Assembly: GCA_965223545.1 (NCBI GenBank)
Contig: OZ245006.1
Location: 3,744,001 to 3,808,000 of the forward strand
Direction of reading: 5' to 3'
Length of the DNA: 64,000 bases
Source: Planctomycetota bacterium
GTDB taxonomy: Bacteria; Planctomycetota; UBA1135; UBA2386
Each line of letters starts with the position of its first letter. Within the stretch, counting starts at the first letter, position 1. This document shows, piece by piece, positions 368-47,364 of the stretch. A program made the position numbers and the translations under genes. Below the pieces are notes generated by a model. The model had not been told where the DNA came from and searched no databases. It saw nothing but the letters and a program-made list of their open reading frames with translations.

Positions 368-2545
368 ATGAAGTCGAAGCTCACGCTCGTCACACTCGCC
401 ACTCTGTCGGGAACGCCGACGGTCAAAGCACAGGTCGATTGGCACCACGACGGTCTCGGCACGCGCCGCGAGCACGCGATCGCGGCCGCCCCGACGACGT
501 CGCCGGCGACCGTGGTCCTGTTCGGCGGTCGGGACGACGGCGGCGAGCTGTTCGGCGACACGTGGACTTGGCGCGCGAGCGCCTGGCAAGAGGAGCATCC
601 GGCCCGCTCCCCCGCGCCGCGCGCCGGCCACTCCATGGTCTTCGACCCGCGGCGCAACGTCACCGTGCTGCACGGCGGGCACGGCCGCAACGACACCTGG
701 GAGTGGGACGGCAGCCAGTGGCGACAGGCGGTCACCGCCAACACACCGCCGGCGCTGACCGGCCCGGCGATGGCGTACGATCCCGTCGGGCGCGCCGTTC
801 TTCTCTTCGGCGCCGCGCTGGGCGCTCCCTCGGTCGCCGAGCTCTGGCGCTACGACAGCAACGACTGGACCCGCCTGACCCTGCCGGGACCATCGCCGCG
901 CGTCGGCGCGCGGATGGCGACTGACAGCCAGCGCCAGCGCGTGGTCTTGTTCGGCGGCACCGACCTCGGCTCGGGTGCGATCCTGGCGGAGACCTGGGAG
1001 TGGAACGGTTCGAGCTGGCAGCGGCATTCTCCGGCCAATGCGCCGGCCCCGCGGACCGGTCACGTGCTGGCCGACGCGAACGGCTCCGTGATCCTGATCG
1101 GCGGCGGCGGCAGCCCCCTGGAAACCCGGGAGACGTGGTGGTGGGACGGCAGCACCTGGACCCGAGGCGCCGACGGCCCGGGACTCGTCGACACCGCTGC
1201 CGTCGGCGAAGGCCCCAACGGGGTGCTGGTCCACGGCGGCGCGTCGATGGCGTTCACTCCGGCCGGCACCAGCCTCGGCGACACCTGGCACACATCGCCG
1301 GCCGGCTGGTTGCAGGTCCATGCATTCGCCACCCCGGACGGCCTCGGCCGCCACGCGATGGCCTACGACCCCCACCGTGACGTCCTGCTGGTCTGCGGCG
1401 GCCAAGACCAGAGCTCGATCCCCTACTTTCCGACTTGGGAGTGGGATGGCGCGGCTTGGGCCCGCGTCGGTGGCTCACCGCCGCCGTTCCGCATCGATGC
1501 CGCGATGGCCTACGACGCCGCGCGGCGGCGCATGGTCTTGTTCGGCGGCCGGGGCTTCTCGGCCCCGATGGGGGACACCTGGCTCTGGGACGGCATCGCG
1601 TGGATTGCGGTCGCGAGCAGCCCACCGCCGGCGCGCGAGGGAGCCGCCATGGTGTGGGATGCCGCGCGCAAACAGATCGTGATGTTCGGCGGAGTCGGCC
1701 TTGCCGATACGTGGCTGTGGGACGGCACCAGCTGGAACGCAGCGACCCCACCAGTGAGCCCTCCGTCGGGCGCGCACCCGATGCTGTTCGACACCTGGGC
1801 CGGCGTCGGCGTGCTGTTCACCAAGACCGACTGGTGGATCTGGAACGGGGGTTCTTGGAGCCGTGTGCCCGGCCGCGGCCTGCCACCGATCTCCGCCTCG
1901 ACCACTCCGTCCGAGCTGCACGCGGTGCACGACATCGAGCGAGACCGCTACCTGATCTGGGACGAGAGCGACCTGTGGGAGTTCGACGGCAGTTCCTGGG
2001 TCCAGCGCGTGGTTTCCGCCAGCCCACGGGCCACGAGCCAAGCGCGCATCGCCTATGACAGTAAGCGCGCGCGCACGATCAAGTTCGGCGGCAGGGGCAA
2101 CAACGCGTTCAGCAATTCGCTCTGGTCCTACGGACCGGTCGCCCGCGCGGCCCACGTCAAGATCGGCACCGGCTGCGCCGGCAGCGGAGGCACTCCAAAC
2201 CTGACTCCGTCGGGCCTGCCGTGGCTGGGCGACCGGCCGCGGTTGCTGCTGTCCAACATGCCGGCGGGCCCCAACCTGATCGGCTTCGGCATGTCGGCCA
2301 GCCAGTGGGCCGGCCAACCGCTGCCGCGCTCACTCGCGTCGATCGGGCGACCCGCCTGCCAGGTCTGGAGCTCGTGGGATGTGGTGTTTCCGATCGTCGC
2401 GCCAGGCGGCGCGACGGCCATTCCCGTGCCGATCCCCAACCGACCGAGCTTGCTCGGTCAGACCTTCTTCAGCCAAGCAGCCGGCGTCGACAGCGCCGGC
2501 GTCGTGGTCAGCGCCAGCGTGGGCAGCACCGTCGGCGGCAAGTGA
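368..2545 (+). CDS. Secreted kelch/galactose-oxidase-type beta-propeller protein with shared C-terminal domain
   Basis: Repeated AMAYD..R...VLFGG...DTW.WDG..W units; signal peptide from ATG 368; C-terminal GTGC...PWLG...PIPN...LLG...Q domain. Confidence 0.85.
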   Translation: MKSKLTLVTLATLSGTPTVKAQVDWHHDGLGTRREHAIAAAPTTSPATVVLFGGRDDGGELFGDTWTWRASAWQEEHPARSPAPRAGHSMVFDPRRNVTVLHGGHGRNDTWEWDGSQWRQAVTANTPPALTGPAMAYDPVGRAVLLFGAALGAPSVAELWRYDSNDWTRLTLPGPSPRVGARMATDSQRQRVVLFGGTDLGSGAILAETWEWNGSSWQRHSPANAPAPRTGHVLADANGSVILIGGGGSPLETRETWWWDGSTWTRGADGPGLVDTAAVGEGPNGVLVHGGASMAFTPAGTSLGDTWHTSPAGWLQVHAFATPDGLGRHAMAYDPHRDVLLVCGGQDQSSIPYFPTWEWDGAAWARVGGSPPPFRIDAAMAYDAARRRMVLFGGRGFSAPMGDTWLWDGIAWIAVASSPPPAREGAAMVWDAARKQIVMFGGVGLADTWLWDGTSWNAATPPVSPPSGAHPMLFDTWAGVGVLFTKTDWWIWNGGSWSRVPGRGLPPISASTTPSELHAVHDIERDRYLIWDESDLWEFDGSSWVQRVVSASPRATSQARIAYDSKRARTIKFGGRGNNAFSNSLWSYGPVARAAHVKIGTGCAGSGGTPNLTPSGLPWLGDRPRLLLSNMPAGPNLIGFGMSASQWAGQPLPRSLASIGRPACQVWSSWDVVFPIVAPGGATAIPVPIPNRPSLLGQTFFSQAAGVDSAGVVVSASVGSTVGGK

Positions 2546-2573
2546 AGGTCCGCGCGGCGGGGCCGACGCCGCA

Positions 2574-4598
2574 CTACTCGTGCACGAACGGCGCGCGCGA
2601 ACGCGGTCCGTTGCGCAGGAAGTTGTCGACGCCGATGCGCATGTCCTTGGTGGCACACACTTCGCCAAAGCACTGCGCCTCGAACGCGATGCCGTCGCGC
2701 AGCGACTGGCGCGCACCCTCGGTGATCGCCTTGCACAGGATCGCATCCACCGCGCGACTGAGGTGACCGATGTCGACCGCGGGCAGCTCGGCCGGCACGT
2801 CGACGAGCGGCTCGCGCTGGATCGGTGCACACTCCACGGCCCCATCGGCGATGCCGCGCGCGAGCTCGATCGCCGCCGGCACCAGCTCGCCCTCGACCTC
2901 GGCGCGCACCAGACCGAGCTCGGCGGCGCGCGCCGACGAGATCGGCTTGCCGGTCCGCAGCAGCTCGGCAGCGGCCTGCATCCCGATCAGCCGCGGCAGC
3001 CGCTGCGTTCCACCGGCGCCCGGGATGATGCCCAGATTGGGCTCGGGCTGGGCGGCAAACACGGCGATCCCCGCCTTCGCCAGCCGCGCGGTGCAGGCCA
3101 TCGCGAGCTCGTTGCCGCCACCGAACGCGAGGCCGTTCATCGCGCACACCACCGGCTTGGCGGTGTCCTCGATGAAATCGAGCACGCGCTGTGAGCCGCG
3201 CGACGTCGCCTCGCCGTGCGCGGCGTTCTCGATGCCCGCGAGAAAGCGCACGTCGGCGCCCGACACGAACGCCTTCTTGCCGAAGCCGGTCAGCACGACG
3301 GCGCGGATCGCCGCGTCGGCCTCGGTCTCGCGGAAGCGTTGCTCGAGCTCGTCGAACACCGCCTCGCTCAGGGCATTGAGCACCTTGGGCCGGCGGATCG
3401 TGAGCACCGCGACGTCACCGTGATCCTCACGCATCACCACCGGCACGGCGAAGGGGCGGTTGTCCGTGCCGTGCTCGGCGAGGCAGCGCGGCACCGGAAA
3501 GCCCGGATGGTCCGCGGCGTATGCCCGGACCAAGCGCAGGGCCTCGGCCGTGCCCAGTTCGTTCATGAAGCGAAACGCCGGCTTCAGGTCGAGCGCCAAC
3601 TCCGTCGCCATGTCCAGGTCGGCGACGCTGGCGAGCCCCGCGTCGACGATCTCGCCACACAGACCGAAGTAGGCCCCGCGCAGCGCCGCGGTGACCGCTG
3701 CCCGCGTCTCGGCCGACACCTCGACGGTTTCGCCGCGGCGCGGCACGTCCCACGGCTCGCCGGTCTCGACGCGCTCCTTCAGCGACGCCGGGGTGCGGAA
3801 CCACGAGTGGATCTTGGTGGTGTAGTGGTCGAGCCCGACCGCGGTGATCGGGTTGCCGCCGGTGAGGTTCATCGCGGTGAACGAGCCGACCGTCAGCCCG
3901 AGCGCCTCGGTCGCCACCTGGTCGATCTGCGCCGTGGTCGCCACGCCGCTCTCGGCCAACAATGCCGAGGCGAGGAACAGGCCTTCGAACACGGGATCCA
4001 ACGCGTAGCCGTAGCGGGACCGCACCTGGATCGGCACCTTGCCGATCGCCTCGTAGAACGACATCAGCCACCGCGCCACGTCCGGATCGGTGGCCTCGCT
4101 GGGCACGACCTCGACCATCAGATTGCGCTCGGCCGGGAAGAAGTAATGGATCACACAGGTGCGGCCAGCGTGCTTTGCCTCGGCGAAGATGACTTCGGGC
4201 TCGAGGTGCGACGAGTTGCTGGCCAGGATCGCATCGGCAGAGACCAGCTGCTCGACCTGCGCGAAGATCCGCCCCTTGAGCGCGCGATCCTCGGTCGCTG
4301 CCTCGACGACCAAGTCGGCGCCGCGGATCGCGTCGTAGTCGGTGGTGAACTCGACGTGCGACAGCATCGCCGCCTGCTGGTCGGTCGAGAACGCGCCGGT
4401 CTCGACGCCCTTCGCCACCTTCTTCTCGAGCTTGGCCCGCCCGCGCGCCAGCGCCTCGTCAGCGACGTCGACGACGACGGTGGACACGCCGAACGGCGAC
4501 AGCACCTTGGTGAAGTACAGCGCGATATCGGGACCGATCTGTCCCGAGCCGATGACCGCGACCTTGGTCAGCGTGCGCCCGGCGTGAGTGAACGTCAT
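2574..4598 (-). CDS. 3-hydroxyacyl-CoA dehydrogenase / enoyl-CoA hydratase fusion (dehydrogenase N-terminal)
   Basis: VIGSGQIG Rossmann motif, VVEAATE, ASNSS; C-terminal crotonase AFVSGAD, GGGNE, PEPNLGIIPGAGGTQRLPRL; start MTFTHAG at 4598. Confidence 0.9.
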   Translation of the reverse strand: MTFTHAGRTLTKVAVIGSGQIGPDIALYFTKVLSPFGVSTVVVDVADEALARGRAKLEKKVAKGVETGAFSTDQQAAMLSHVEFTTDYDAIRGADLVVEAATEDRALKGRIFAQVEQLVSADAILASNSSHLEPEVIFAEAKHAGRTCVIHYFFPAERNLMVEVVPSEATDPDVARWLMSFYEAIGKVPIQVRSRYGYALDPVFEGLFLASALLAESGVATTAQIDQVATEALGLTVGSFTAMNLTGGNPITAVGLDHYTTKIHSWFRTPASLKERVETGEPWDVPRRGETVEVSAETRAAVTAALRGAYFGLCGEIVDAGLASVADLDMATELALDLKPAFRFMNELGTAEALRLVRAYAADHPGFPVPRCLAEHGTDNRPFAVPVVMREDHGDVAVLTIRRPKVLNALSEAVFDELEQRFRETEADAAIRAVVLTGFGKKAFVSGADVRFLAGIENAAHGEATSRGSQRVLDFIEDTAKPVVCAMNGLAFGGGNELAMACTARLAKAGIAVFAAQPEPNLGIIPGAGGTQRLPRLIGMQAAAELLRTGKPISSARAAELGLVRAEVEGELVPAAIELARGIADGAVECAPIQREPLVDVPAELPAVDIGHLSRAVDAILCKAITEGARQSLRDGIAFEAQCFGEVCATKDMRIGVDNFLRNGPRSRAPFVHE

Positions 4599-43265: not shown

Positions 43266-43769
43266 TCATCGGGCGCCCGCGAACACGTCGGCAAGGCTCT
43301 CAGCCGTCAGCAAGCGTTCTGCCCATGCGTCCAACTGCACAGCAGTCGCGGCACGTACGCGCACTTCGACATCCGTATCGATGGGTCCGTAACGGCGCTC
43401 GAGGAGCTTGAGCAGCATGTCCGCCCGACCCTGCGTCCGGCCCTGCGCCCGGCCCTGGGCTCGGCCCTGGGCTCGGCCCTCTTCTCTCAGTCGTTCTGCT
43501 GTGGACATGATCGTGTCTTCTTCGTCACCGACATCATTGGTGAGGAACTCGCGAAGCTCGGGCAACGGAACGTCCGCGACCTCCATGATATACGATAGCA
43601 CGCCTGCCAACGCGGCAACCCCGGTCGGGGAAGCGAAGACACTACGGAACGCATCCGTCCAGTGGCGCAGCTGGGAAAGCAAGTCCTCGGCGTGGCGCGC
43701 CCGCCCAAGGCAGAACAGCGTGAGTCTCGCCAGCGACGACAGCGCCCGGACACGCAGCGCCTCTACCAC
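43266..43769 (-). pseudogene. 5'-truncated Rpn/YhgA-like gene; C-terminal DUF4351-like module (43266-43508) intact
   Basis: MSTAERLREEG(RAQG)n...LLKLLERRYG...A...QLDAWAERLLTAESLADVF; nuclease domain absent; in-frame TAA just upstream. Confidence 0.8.
43424..43480 (-). repeat. 12-bp coding tandem repeat (GRAQ x3, GRTQ) typical of Rpn C termini
   Basis: Repeated cggccctgggct / cggccctgcgcc units. Confidence 0.8.
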
Positions 43770-43885
43770 CGGTGGCCCGAAGGCGGCGCGCGGTTACGCG
43801 CGCGTGGGCTGGCGACCCAGACGCTGCGTGTCCCTTCGGCAAGCGTGCATGAACGTCGGCTGGGCGCCGCCTACGGTCGAGGGCC

Positions 43886-44305
43886 ATGGAACAACTGGAA
43901 ACAACCCCGCTTCCACCGGACATCGAGGCCGTGCGACAGCGCATCGAGGAGTGGCGGCAGACGCGAGAGCGGCGCACGCGCATGCCCGAGAGTCTGTGGC
44001 AGGCTGCCGTCAAGCTGGTGGACGAGCACGGGATGTGGCGGGTGTCGCAGGCCCTGCGCGTGCGGTACGAGGGCCTCAAGTCCCGGGCGGCACCGGCTGA
44101 GGGAGCTGAGGCAGGCGCTAAGCCGAGGACGGCGCCTGGCTTCGTCGACTTGACCCCGGCGCTCGGAAGCGCGCTCGGTGAGGACGTGGCGACGACCGTG
44201 GAGCTATCGCGCCCGGACGGTGCGAGGCTGTCGCTGCGCTTTCGCGGCGGTGATGGCGTCGATCTCCAGTCGCTGGTCCGCGCGTTCAGCGAAGCGAACC
44301 GATGA
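43886..44305 (+). CDS. IS66 TnpA-like accessory protein
   Basis: WR..R...RMPESLWQAAV HTH-like segment, FVDL, VEL..PDG.RL; ATGA overlap with tnpB. Confidence 0.8.
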   Translation: MEQLETTPLPPDIEAVRQRIEEWRQTRERRTRMPESLWQAAVKLVDEHGMWRVSQALRVRYEGLKSRAAPAEGAEAGAKPRTAPGFVDLTPALGSALGEDVATTVELSRPDGARLSLRFRGGDGVDLQSLVRAFSEANR

Positions 44306-44664
44306 TCCAGATCACGCCGCAGATGCGCGTGCTGGTCGCGATCGAGCCCGCCGACTTCCGGCGCGGCATCGACGGACTTGCACGCCTGTGCCGCGAGGCG
44401 CTGCGGTCTGACCCATTCTCCGGCACGGTGTTCGTGTTTCGCAATCGCCGCGAATCGGCCGTCAAGCTGATCGTCTATGACGGCCAAGGCTTCTGGCTGT
44501 GCCACAGGCGCTTGTCCACCGGACGGTTTCGTTTCTGGCCGAAGACCGCGGACGACGGAGCCGCGAGCCTGCAAGCCCACGAGCTGCAGGTGCTGCTCCG
44601 CGGCGGCGACCCGGGCACGACCAAGGCGTCGCCGGAATGGCGGCCGGTCGCCGCGCGAGCGTGA
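44302..44664 (+). CDS. tnpB: IS66 accessory protein TnpB (Orf2)
   Basis: PADFRRGIDGL, DPFSG.VFVFRN, KLIVYDGQGFWL..RRL..GRF.FWP. Confidence 0.93.
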   Translation: MIQITPQMRVLVAIEPADFRRGIDGLARLCREALRSDPFSGTVFVFRNRRESAVKLIVYDGQGFWLCHRRLSTGRFRFWPKTADDGAASLQAHELQVLLRGGDPGTTKASPEWRPVAARA

Positions 44665-44688
44665 TGTCGACGACCGAGAAACTTTGGC

Positions 44689-44717
44689 TTGCGTTCCAAA
44701 TCCACACCAGCTACGAG
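44689..44717 (+). promoter_or_regulatory. Candidate IS-internal sigma70 promoter for DUF4338-tnpC
   Basis: TTGCGT, 17 nt, TACGAG, 7 nt before ATG 44725 with no RBS. Confidence 0.4.
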
Positions 44718-44724
44718 TGTCCGT

Positions 44725-45603
44725 ATGGACTTCGTGCTCGAGCATCGCCATCGGCGCGTCACGGCCGACGAGGTCGCGTTCATCCGCGGTCTCATCGCCG
44801 AGCACCCCGACGCCAGTCGGCGCGCGTTGTCGGCGAAGCTGTGTGAGGCATGGGATTGGCGCCAGCCCAACGGCAGCCTGCGTGACATGGTGTGTCGCTC
44901 GCTGATGCTCGAGTTGCATCGGGCTGGCCACATCGAGCTACCGCCGAAGCGCTGCTCGCCGCGCAACAATCTGGCGCGGCGCAAGAAGCCCGAGTCGGTC
45001 GACGTGGACCAAAGCGCGATTCGTACCGACCTCCGCTCCCTCGGTCCGCTGGCGATCCGGCAAGTGCGGCGCACCGCCGAGGAGCCGCTGCTCAACGGCC
45101 TGATCGAGACGCACCACTACCTCGGGTACACGCAGCCGGTCGGCGAGCACCTCAAGCACCTGGTGTTCGCCGGCGATCGGCCGATCGCGTGCTTCACGTG
45201 GAGCTCTGCGCCGCGGCATCTGGGCCCGCGCGACCGCTTCATCGGGTGGAGCGCACAAGCGCGGCTGCGCAACATCCGGTTCGTCGCCTACAACAGCCGG
45301 TTCCTGATTCTGCCGTGGGTCGAGGTGCCGCACCTGGCGTCACACCTCCTCGGGAGGATGGTGCGCGCGCTGCCCGGCGAGTGGCAGCAGGTGTACGGGC
45401 ACCCGGTCCACTTCGCCGAGACCTTCGTGTACCCGGCCAAGTTCCGTGGCACGTGCTACCGGGCGGCGAACTGGATCGACCTGGGACCGACGACGGGACG
45501 CGGCAAGGACGATCAGACCAAGCGTCCGAACCGACCGCTCAAGGACGTGCTCGGCTATCCGCTGACGAAGCGTTTCCGGGAGCATCTCTGCCGGCTACCG
45601 TGA
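44725..45603 (+). CDS. DUF4338 (Druantia DruA-related, Mom/GNAT-like) protein
   Basis: HHYLGY, RDRFIGWS, NSRFLILPWV..PHLASHLL, ETFV, GTCYRAANW..LG.TTGRG. Confidence 0.85.
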   Translation: MDFVLEHRHRRVTADEVAFIRGLIAEHPDASRRALSAKLCEAWDWRQPNGSLRDMVCRSLMLELHRAGHIELPPKRCSPRNNLARRKKPESVDVDQSAIRTDLRSLGPLAIRQVRRTAEEPLLNGLIETHHYLGYTQPVGEHLKHLVFAGDRPIACFTWSSAPRHLGPRDRFIGWSAQARLRNIRFVAYNSRFLILPWVEVPHLASHLLGRMVRALPGEWQQVYGHPVHFAETFVYPAKFRGTCYRAANWIDLGPTTGRGKDDQTKRPNRPLKDVLGYPLTKRFREHLCRLP

Positions 45604-47273
45604 CGGCCAACAGTACCAAGTCGTCCGGCAAGTCGAAGCCGGACCTGAAGGTCGTCGACATGCGCAAGTTGGAGGACATCGTCGAACGAGCGTCGCGTGC
45701 GCTGCCCGAAGACGATGGCACGACGCTCCGAGCGTCGGTGGAGACTTTGGCGTGGCTGCAGCAGGAGCTGGCGAAGAAGGACGTCGACCTCGCACGGCTT
45801 CGCAGCCTGTTCGGGCTGAACACGAGCGAGAAGACGCGAGACGTGCTGGACGAGAAGGCCGACAAGCCGAAGGGCCGCGGCGACGCCGACAACGACAAGT
45901 CCGACCGCAAGCCGGCGAAGAAGAAGGCCAAGGGCCACGGTCGCAAATCGGCCGCCGACTACATCGGCGCCAACCGGATCGAGGTCGCGCACGGCTCGCT
46001 GAAGTCCGGCGATCCCTGCCCCGAGTGTCCGACAAACAAGTGCGGAAAGATCTACAGACAGGGCAAGCCGAAGACGCTCGTGCGCGTGGTAGGCCAGGCG
46101 CCTCTACAGGCGACGGTCTACGAGCTGGAGCGATTGCACTGCAACCTGTGCGGCACGGTGTTCGTGGCCGAGCCGCCGCCTGGCGTGGGCAAGAAGAAGT
46201 ACGACGCAACGTCGGCGAGCATGATCGCACTGCTGAAGTACGGGAGCGGCATGCCGTTCAATCGACTCGAGCAGCTTCAGGGGAGCCTCGGGATCCCCCT
46301 GCCAGCCGCAACCCAGTGGGACATCGTGAGCGCGGCCGCGACCGAGCTCACGCCGATCCACGACGAGCTGATCCGGCAGGCCGCGCAGGGTCGAGTGATG
46401 CACAACGACGACACCTCGATGCGGGTACTGGCGTTGCGCAAGCACATCGACGAGCAGCAGAAGTCCGGGGAGACGGACCGTACCGGCATCTTCTCGACCG
46501 GCGTCGTGTCGGTGCTCGATGACGGTCACCGCGTCGCGCTGTTCTTCACGGGCCGCCAACATGCCGGCGAGAACATCGAGGATGTCCTCGCGCATCGCGC
46601 CGCCGACCTCGGCAAGCCGACGCAGATATGCGACGGCCTGGACCGCAACCTGCCGAGAGAGTTCGAGACCGTGGTCGGCAACTGCCTCGCGCACGCGCGG
46701 CGGAAGTTCGTCGAGGTGGTGAACAGTTTCCCCGAAGAGTGCCGTCACGTGCTCGAGACCCTGCGCGATGTCTACGCGCACGACGCGACCACGCGCAAGC
46801 GCGGGATGTCGGACGAGGAGCGGTTGCGCTACCACCAGAAGCACAGCCAACCGCTGATGGACGGGCTCAGGGCGTGGATGGACGAACGCTTCGATCAGAA
46901 GCTGGTCGAGCCGAATTCGGCGCTGGGCAGCGCAATCACCTACATGACCAAACGCTGGGACCGGCTGACGCTGTTCCTGCGCGAGCCAGGGGCGCCGCTG
47001 GACAACAATGTTGTCGAACGCGCGCTGAAGAAGGCGATCCTCAATCGCAAGAACGCGCTGTTCTACGAGACCGAGAACGGCGCACGAGTCGGCGACCTGT
47101 TCATGTCGCTGATCCACACTGCCGAGCTCGTGGCCGCCAACCCGCGGGAATACCTGACCGCGGTGCTCACGCACATCGATGTCGCCCAGCGCGATCCCGG
47201 CAGATGGATGCCGTGGAGCTACTCGGCGACGGCAAGTGAGCTGGATGGTGCCGTGCCATCAGCCGCCCAGTAA
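45600..47273 (+). CDS. tnpC: IS66 transposase TnpC
   Basis: Coiled coil then LFG..SEK, CPEC/C..CG zinc finger, HNDDT, CLAHARRKF, PLDNN..ERALK; GTG start overlaps the DUF4338 stop. Confidence 0.95.
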   Translation: MTANSTKSSGKSKPDLKVVDMRKLEDIVERASRALPEDDGTTLRASVETLAWLQQELAKKDVDLARLRSLFGLNTSEKTRDVLDEKADKPKGRGDADNDKSDRKPAKKKAKGHGRKSAADYIGANRIEVAHGSLKSGDPCPECPTNKCGKIYRQGKPKTLVRVVGQAPLQATVYELERLHCNLCGTVFVAEPPPGVGKKKYDATSASMIALLKYGSGMPFNRLEQLQGSLGIPLPAATQWDIVSAAATELTPIHDELIRQAAQGRVMHNDDTSMRVLALRKHIDEQQKSGETDRTGIFSTGVVSVLDDGHRVALFFTGRQHAGENIEDVLAHRAADLGKPTQICDGLDRNLPREFETVVGNCLAHARRKFVEVVNSFPEECRHVLETLRDVYAHDATTRKRGMSDEERLRYHQKHSQPLMDGLRAWMDERFDQKLVEPNSALGSAITYMTKRWDRLTLFLREPGAPLDNNVVERALKKAILNRKNALFYETENGARVGDLFMSLIHTAELVAANPREYLTAVLTHIDVAQRDPGRWMPWSYSATASELDGAVPSAAQ

Positions 47274-47364
47274 CGCGAGGCTCCATCGCGCTGGCAAGCG
47301 GCCGCTCGCGCGGCGACCAAAAACCGGCCGCCTGCGCACGCTTGCCGGAAGGACACGACGCTGC

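Follow-up and report, generated by a model that had tools for sequence, protein, structure and literature searches.

A 64,000-nucleotide stretch of a Planctomycetota genome (GenBank assembly GCA_965223545.1, contig OZ245006.1, positions 3,744,001 to 3,808,000; hereafter the window, to whose numbering all positions refer) contains an insertion sequence (IS) of the IS66 family with a fourth gene directly upstream of its transposase gene. The element (43828-47356, 3529 bp) has the order tnpA-tnpB-X-tnpC, in which gene X encodes a PF14236 (DruA/DUF4338) protein. Many close relatives do without X, which makes it an optional cassette rather than a fourth gene needed for transposition. It is conserved in related elements, has its own predicted promoter and occurs beside or fused to several kinds of transposase, and the best structural match of its main domain is the Mom protein of phage Mu. 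We tentatively propose that X is a nucleic-acid acyltransferase under its own control, produced along with the transposase, which would mark or shield the DNA of the element.

Protein X and Its Similarity to Mom

Gene X (44725-45603, + strand) encodes 292 amino acids with a pI of 10.2 and matches PF14236 with an E-value of 3e-25. The ATG at 44725 is most likely the start codon, since the longest open reading frame (ORF) opens with a TTG (44689) that belongs to the conserved -35 box described below. The structure model (predicted local distance difference test score 93.8) consists of a small, helical N-terminal domain (residues ~1-75) that resembles helix-turn-helix (HTH) or winged-helix domains, a linker, and a Gcn5-related N-acetyltransferase (GNAT) domain (~105-290). 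In Foldseek against the PDB, the first match of the GNAT domain was Mu Mom (8bv8, E 1.6e-6). VIA over 48,161 chains likewise placed Mu Mom first (Z 13.7, root mean square deviation 3.5, 160 aligned residues, 18% identity). In BFVD, phage Mom ranked second; the best match there was an uncharacterized Faunusvirus protein (A0A3G4ZXG3, E 2.7e-9 over 303 columns). That DUF4338 is a GNAT has already been stated in an excerpt of the literature (PMC10853773). A preliminary description of the window, made from the sequence alone, had proposed a Mom-type GNAT on the basis of the motifs HHYLG and GTCYRAANW. Both motifs are present in protein X, and the fold and the ranking of Mom in Foldseek and VIA agree with this proposal, while the sequence match is weak and a Tyr stands at the position of Mom D149.

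According to PMC13219725, Mom attaches glycine, taken from Gly-tRNA, to the N6 of adenine in double-stranded DNA, and H58, Y59, R111, S124, D149, R151, Y159 and an HTH-like insertion (about 175-209) are essential or important for it. Residues H58, Y59, S124 and Y159 align to H131, Y132, S206 and Y245 of X, and R192 of X probably corresponds to R111. These five positions of X are kept in 90-91 of 91 dereplicated relatives, R192 being invariant (91/91). Besides the GNAT core and these positions, the two proteins share a basic surface and the lack of a canonical coenzyme A loop; what we take to be the pattern of this loop occurs in only 2 of 66 X family members. The Asp at position 149 of Mom is shared by all 58 Mom sequences examined. 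X differs from Mom by its low identity, the extra N-terminal domain, the Tyr at D149 and its residence in insertion sequences. Its insertion is also much shorter: where Mom has the HTH-like insertion, hhalign leaves a gap of more than 20 residues and X has a basic loop with one short helix. The Pfam Mom family (PF25680) is matched at E<=0.1 by 23 of the 66 X family members (best 1.7e-6), but not by the X protein of this locus, whose match to the Mom-like PHROG has an E-value of 0.049. A sequence search of the PDB with the X alignment returned nothing at E<=10. X thus plausibly works like Mom, yet it falls outside the Mom family in the strict sense.

A Conserved Promoter Box and Coupling to tnpC

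The predicted promoter and operator region of X and tnpC (44689-44724, + strand) consists of a TTGCGTTC box (44689-44696), a 17-nt spacer and a -10-like hexamer (44712-44717) that is imperfect in this copy. Of 146 X loci, 135 have the exact box ahead of X, against a background of 0.0006 per 75 nt, and in 126 of the 135 box-bearing loci it lies 35-38 nt before the X start. A hexamer of the type (C/T)AnnnT follows 17 nt past the box. A Shine-Dalgarno-like 4-mer precedes X in 9/146 loci, and this copy has no Shine-Dalgarno site. The geometry of box, hexamer and start points to a leaderless mRNA that would begin at the ATG of X. A generic sigma70 scan did not call this promoter. Among 20 X-less elements, none has the exact box before tnpC and some keep looser promoter-like sites; an exact TTGCGTTC near the X-less tnpC of locus L259 was discounted, as it lies inside the tnpB coding sequence. 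In its simplest reading, the box may be the operator for the N-terminal domain of X.

Two types of relatives have a different upstream region. The forms of X that are fused to IS4/Tn5 transposases (L222, L223, L225, L227 and L229) have a CT(T/G)GACA-type box instead of TTGCGTTC. At locus L278, an X of 35% identity without TTGCGTTC occupies the same slot upstream of tnpC, which suggests independent capture or replacement.

Downstream, the stop codon of X overlaps the GTG start codon of tnpC (GTGA; tnpC at 45600-47273, + strand, 557 amino acids). The preliminary description had taken this overlap as a sign of translational coupling, and of the 116 loci with both genes intact, 66 share this -4 overlap.

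Spread and Conservation of the Four-Gene Layout

The preliminary description had suggested searching genomes for the four-gene layout. In a search with X, 8000 candidates were scored, all at E<=0.001, and the best 120 were 72-91% identical. Among the best 80 of 573 GTDB loci, 59 have the order tnpB-X-tnpC, 8 have X-tnpC with tnpB inverted behind it, in 3 X precedes an ISBst12-type transposase, and the rest show only X-tnpC (5) or only tnpB-X (5); all 80 X relatives adjoin IS66 genes. The junction of X with tnpC thus persists where tnpA and tnpB are inverted behind it (8/80). These relatives belong to Planctomycetota, Myxococcota, Acidobacteriota, Pseudomonadota, Thermodesulfobacteriota and other phyla. 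Two records of a plasmid collection match X, and a phage collection of 50,697 records contains no real match.

Of 157 X loci, this one included, 146 have an intact X; contig ends cut the gene in 8 and it is broken in 3. Over 216 non-independent pairs, the ratio of nonsynonymous to synonymous substitutions has medians of 0.10 (X), 0.14 (tnpC) and 0.07 (tnpB). A perfect 8-bp target site duplication (TSD) was found at 9 further X-bearing loci. Most pairs of terminal inverted repeats (TIRs) have none, probably because repeats were collapsed in short contigs. In one genome with six copies of X, the identity among three elements is 99.8% over 3.6 kb, though matching TSDs are absent. In the host genome (8.1 Mb), the element occurs as a single copy with the only PF14236 gene.

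Some relatives are larger. Eight related elements (L086, L097, L098, L113, L123, L131, L141 and L159) measure 4.5-5.1 kb, approximately 1-1.5 kb more than the element described here, and locus L005 has an rve transposase and an AAA ATPase between tnpB and X (1061-3612), a pair which we take to be IS21-like.

X Is Optional

A metagenome search anchored on TnpC gave X in all 76 loci that have upstream DNA among the best 80 of 271. The idea that X is obligatory in this subgroup was rejected, since X is present in only 6 of 20 testable TnpC relatives (44-57% identity; two further loci were untestable) in 300 genomes of the host phylum and in 6 of 9 in two other phyla, a count that omits three loci of the centre genomes and two fragments. 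The metagenome count therefore comes from an unrepresentative, biased sample. In the combined phylum samples, 12 of 29 transposase-anchored relatives carry X. Both ends and a perfect TSD are present at each of the X-less loci L247, L252, L254 and L261. A Thiodictyon plasmid harbors two identical X-less copies, one of them with a TSD; the same strain has other X homologs, and help in trans is therefore possible. A more distant X-less sister occurs with TSDs on plasmids of Vibrio, Klebsiella and Shewanella. Because many close relatives with the same ends but without X carry perfect TSDs, X is an optional cassette. The GTG-type ends, 11 bp outside an IS66-like core, are common to the whole subgroup, with or without X, and a link between this type of end and X was for that reason dismissed.

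On a FastTree tree of TnpC the presence of X changes 11 times, of which at least 7 changes are forced by strong branches. X co-diverges with TnpC (Mantel 0.54) about as TnpB does (0.60), and 14 of 28 strong splits in the X tree conflict with the TnpC tree. In two X-less elements (L238:3924-3965 and L255) the spacer between tnpB and tnpC encodes a short ATG-led peptide that by eye resembles the first residues of X; it may be a deletion scar or a leader peptide.

Association With Other Transposases

Among 16 longer X relatives that were scanned, X is fused to transposase domains of IS66 (1), IS4/Tn5 (4) and ISAs1 type (3). In the host phylum, the X profile matched 31 of 301 genomes, and 21 of 28 downstream or fused frames contain a transposase domain: IS66 in 12, IS4/Tn5 in 7, ISAs1 in 1 and DUF772 in 1. 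One of the remaining frames has a DUF6788 domain and six have none.

Close relatives of X with the same promoter box also precede ISBst12-type (DUF6444 + DDE) transposases (L013, L021, L071 and L211), and their X genes nest within the X tree of the four-gene elements. The ISBst12 group of IS66 is described in part of PMC12898284 as single-ORF elements, whereas the element studied here still has tnpA and tnpB, and its TnpC falls on a different branch. On a Thiodictyon plasmid (L269:2968-6170), an X homolog is followed by a site-specific integrase and an IS91-family transposase.

Relation to Druantia

DruA of Druantia type I shares the PF14236 domain with X, but the context of X is a transposase operon inside an insertion sequence. 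The match of X to PF14236 covers only positions 45-224 of 297. Weak matches to PADLOC DruA profiles were found for 31 of the 66 X family members (best 2e-7), and the X protein of this locus matched none of the PADLOC families at E<=0.1. Druantia type I consists of druABCDE (listed in an excerpt of PMC7251935), and a Pfam scan of 10 neighboring ORFs (37-54 kb) revealed no DruE-type (DUF1998) helicase. These scans give no indication that the X gene of this element is a Druantia system, and the role in defense that the preliminary description had considered through DruA finds no backing in them.

Possible Role of X

As a working model, the leaderless promoter and gene X form an optional cassette directly before the transposase gene, translationally coupled to tnpC, so that X would be made together with TnpC. 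The HTH-like domain would bind the TTGCGTTC box and limit expression of both X and tnpC. The Mom-like GNAT domain may move an acyl or aminoacyl group, perhaps from a charged tRNA as for Mom, onto DNA bases near the element or on transposition intermediates. Such a mark could protect the DNA of the element against host nucleases while it moves or enters a cell, or it could adjust how the transposase binds, and X would thus be a fitness aid rather than a required step of transposition. In jumbo phages, Mom-family domains are fused to endonucleases of the restriction endonuclease fold and were proposed to protect self DNA (in the part of PMC7824862 that treats them). There too a Mom-like modifier is paired with a DNA-cutting enzyme, but the partner of X is a DDE transposase encoded in a separate, coupled gene. 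A broader version of the model is possible, if doubtful: at least four IS families would have repeatedly recruited a relative of Mom that controls its own expression and, whenever transposase is produced, aminoacylates bases of DNA as an epigenetic self-mark. The subclade of this copy, with Tyr or His at the D149 position, may then mark differently, and the same chemistry would explain DruA of Druantia.

Several observations count against this marking function. Folded alone, the N-terminal domain gives weak HTH/winged-helix matches (top Z 5.7). The lead of Mom over ordinary GNATs is thin, with RimI at E 1.7e-5 in Foldseek and the next chain in VIA at Z 12.2, and the profile-profile match between X and Mom is weak (hhalign probability 15%, E 0.0017). 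The register that places R192 on R111 comes from one hidden Markov model alignment and was not reproduced by hhalign or MAFFT. The D149 position is Tyr236 in this X, though Asp in 84 of the 91 relatives, and it is Tyr or His in 99 of 116 parsed nearest homologs; it has turned to Tyr or His about three times, once in a 34-row clade. The position resembling R151 is off by one, and the nearest conserved basic position (239) is a Lys here. Loss of the box in X-less elements could be simple co-deletion. Lastly, X-less relatives are common (17/29) and have perfect TSDs, and any benefit of X must therefore be conditional.

X could instead regulate the transposase without modifying DNA: the HTH-like domain would repress the shared promoter, and the GNAT domain would acylate TnpC or a host protein, or sense a ligand or modified DNA. 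This is rather unlikely in our estimation, even though the operator-like box is linked to X (135/146 against 0/20), coupling or fusion to transposases suggests 1:1 production, the changes of D149 to Tyr or His are expected if Mom chemistry is not needed, and protein N-acetyltransferases score close behind Mom. The transposase partners of X are unrelated, which makes a specific protein substrate less likely, and the conserved residues are the Mom-type set, with the canonical coenzyme A loop missing. X could also be cargo for defense or addiction, as an antiphage protein of the DruA kind or as a GNAT toxin aimed at tRNA that helps its host or makes it dependent, but this appears improbable. Its optional presence is like that of cargo, the Pfam domain carries the name DruA and about half of the family (31/66) gives weak PADLOC DruA matches; GNAT toxins that act on tRNA also exist (according to an excerpt of PMC13219725). 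However, this X has neither a PADLOC match nor a DruE-type helicase among the scanned neighbors, no antitoxin-like ORF lies within the element, and free cargo would hardly account for the transposase fusions or for the constant place immediately upstream of the transposase.

The repeated changes of X presence on the TnpC tree, the conflicts between the two trees, the nesting of the ISBst12-type X genes and the divergent X in the slot of L278 would all be consistent with a selfish hitch-hiker, in which X and its promoter insert upstream of transposase genes and are kept as promoter supplier while the enzyme serves the cassette alone. This is quite improbable, as X co-diverges with TnpC about as strongly as TnpB, the cassette contains neither a mobility gene nor separate ends, and strong purifying selection on the active site still demands a function. 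The preliminary description had named a one-off capture, with related copies lacking the gene, as what would speak against its interpretation. Close relatives without X do exist and the host genome has a single copy, but the idea that just one IS66 copy picked up a druA gene from its host is refuted by the tnpB-X-tnpC order in 59 of the best 80 relatives and X-tnpC in 8 more, from many phyla, and by the genome with six X copies and three nearly identical elements. Among these explanations, an acyltransferase that marks or shields element DNA is the one we tentatively prefer.

Element Anatomy and Insertion Site

The element is bounded by 21-bp TIRs (left 43828-43848, + strand, beginning with GTG; right 47336-47356, - strand) that are identical at 19 of 21 positions, the right one having two mismatches to the left. 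Strandless 8-bp TSD copies (GACGCTGC) lie at 43820-43827 and 47357-47364, the right copy directly past the stop codon of a minus-strand S-adenosylmethionine methyltransferase gene. The chance of an identical 8-mer on both flanks is ~5e-5 at 70% GC. The first gene is a tnpA-like ORF (43886-44305, + strand, 139 amino acids) whose stop codon overlaps the tnpB start; it was assigned by position, is 27-53% identical to the same-position ORF in relatives and has no match in Pfam or NCBIfam. The IS66 accessory gene tnpB follows (44302-44664, + strand, 120 amino acids; PF05717 E 1e-29, NF033819). The DDE transposase TnpC matches PF03050 and NF033517 above the cut-off, and its four Cys and D270/D271, D345 and E473 are invariant in an alignment of 50 relatives. 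The preliminary description of the element, with its length, repeats and gene order, was confirmed, with the start of X as the one refinement. Contigs from three runs of one study, possibly the source sample itself, cover the stretch and agree with it throughout. A search for an empty site gave none, as relatives were too distant and no contig joined the two flanks.

The element is an intact, recently inserted IS66-family member of a subgroup with GTG-type ends. It agrees with the family in its TnpB and DDE TnpC, with intact catalytic residues in PF03050, in having tnpA and tnpB upstream, in gene order, and in its TIRs and 8-bp TSD. It departs from the canonical three-gene group (tnpA-tnpB-tnpC; members such as IS66 and IS679) by the fourth gene with its own promoter between tnpB and tnpC and by its ends, which read GTGTCC and start with GTG, 11 bp outside the IS66-like G(C/T)AAGCG core. 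Ends that start with GTAA presumably mark the canonical group and are also seen in the other IS66 copies of the host genome. These belong to two families without gene X (G000:C1, e.g., 1795728 and 4535219; ~8 and ~9 tnpB copies) that have GTAA ends, and TnpC is only ~25% identical to theirs.

Target sites in 47 loci tend to G-x-W-x-x-W-x-C (G in 52, W in 74, W in 80 and C in 44 of 94 flanks). Just left of the insertion lies a short ORF ending in DUF4351 (43266-43769, - strand) without a second copy in the genome; it presumably corresponds to the C-terminal part of an Rpn-type protein, as a fragment or a small stand-alone gene.

Implications

A full-text literature search, with supplements and ISfinder outside its reach, found no description of DUF4338/DruA inside IS66. 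Iyer et al. (in 2013) are said to have possibly mentioned Mom-family genes beside transposases. In the usual view, an insertion sequence requires nothing beyond its transposase functions, and regulatory DNA marks usually come from host methylases. If the proposed role is correct, a conserved, promoter-linked Mom-like enzyme, coupled with or fused to transposases of several unrelated kinds, would amount to a DNA-marking function encoded by the elements themselves, and such a self-mark could serve in anti-restriction upon transfer or in discrimination between self and target. Natural sister elements with and without X but with the same ends offer a ready-made controlled comparison, and the small X protein is an easy way into the function of DruA/DUF4338. 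Counts of phage defense systems should leave out genes labeled "Druantia DruA" that lie next to transposases.

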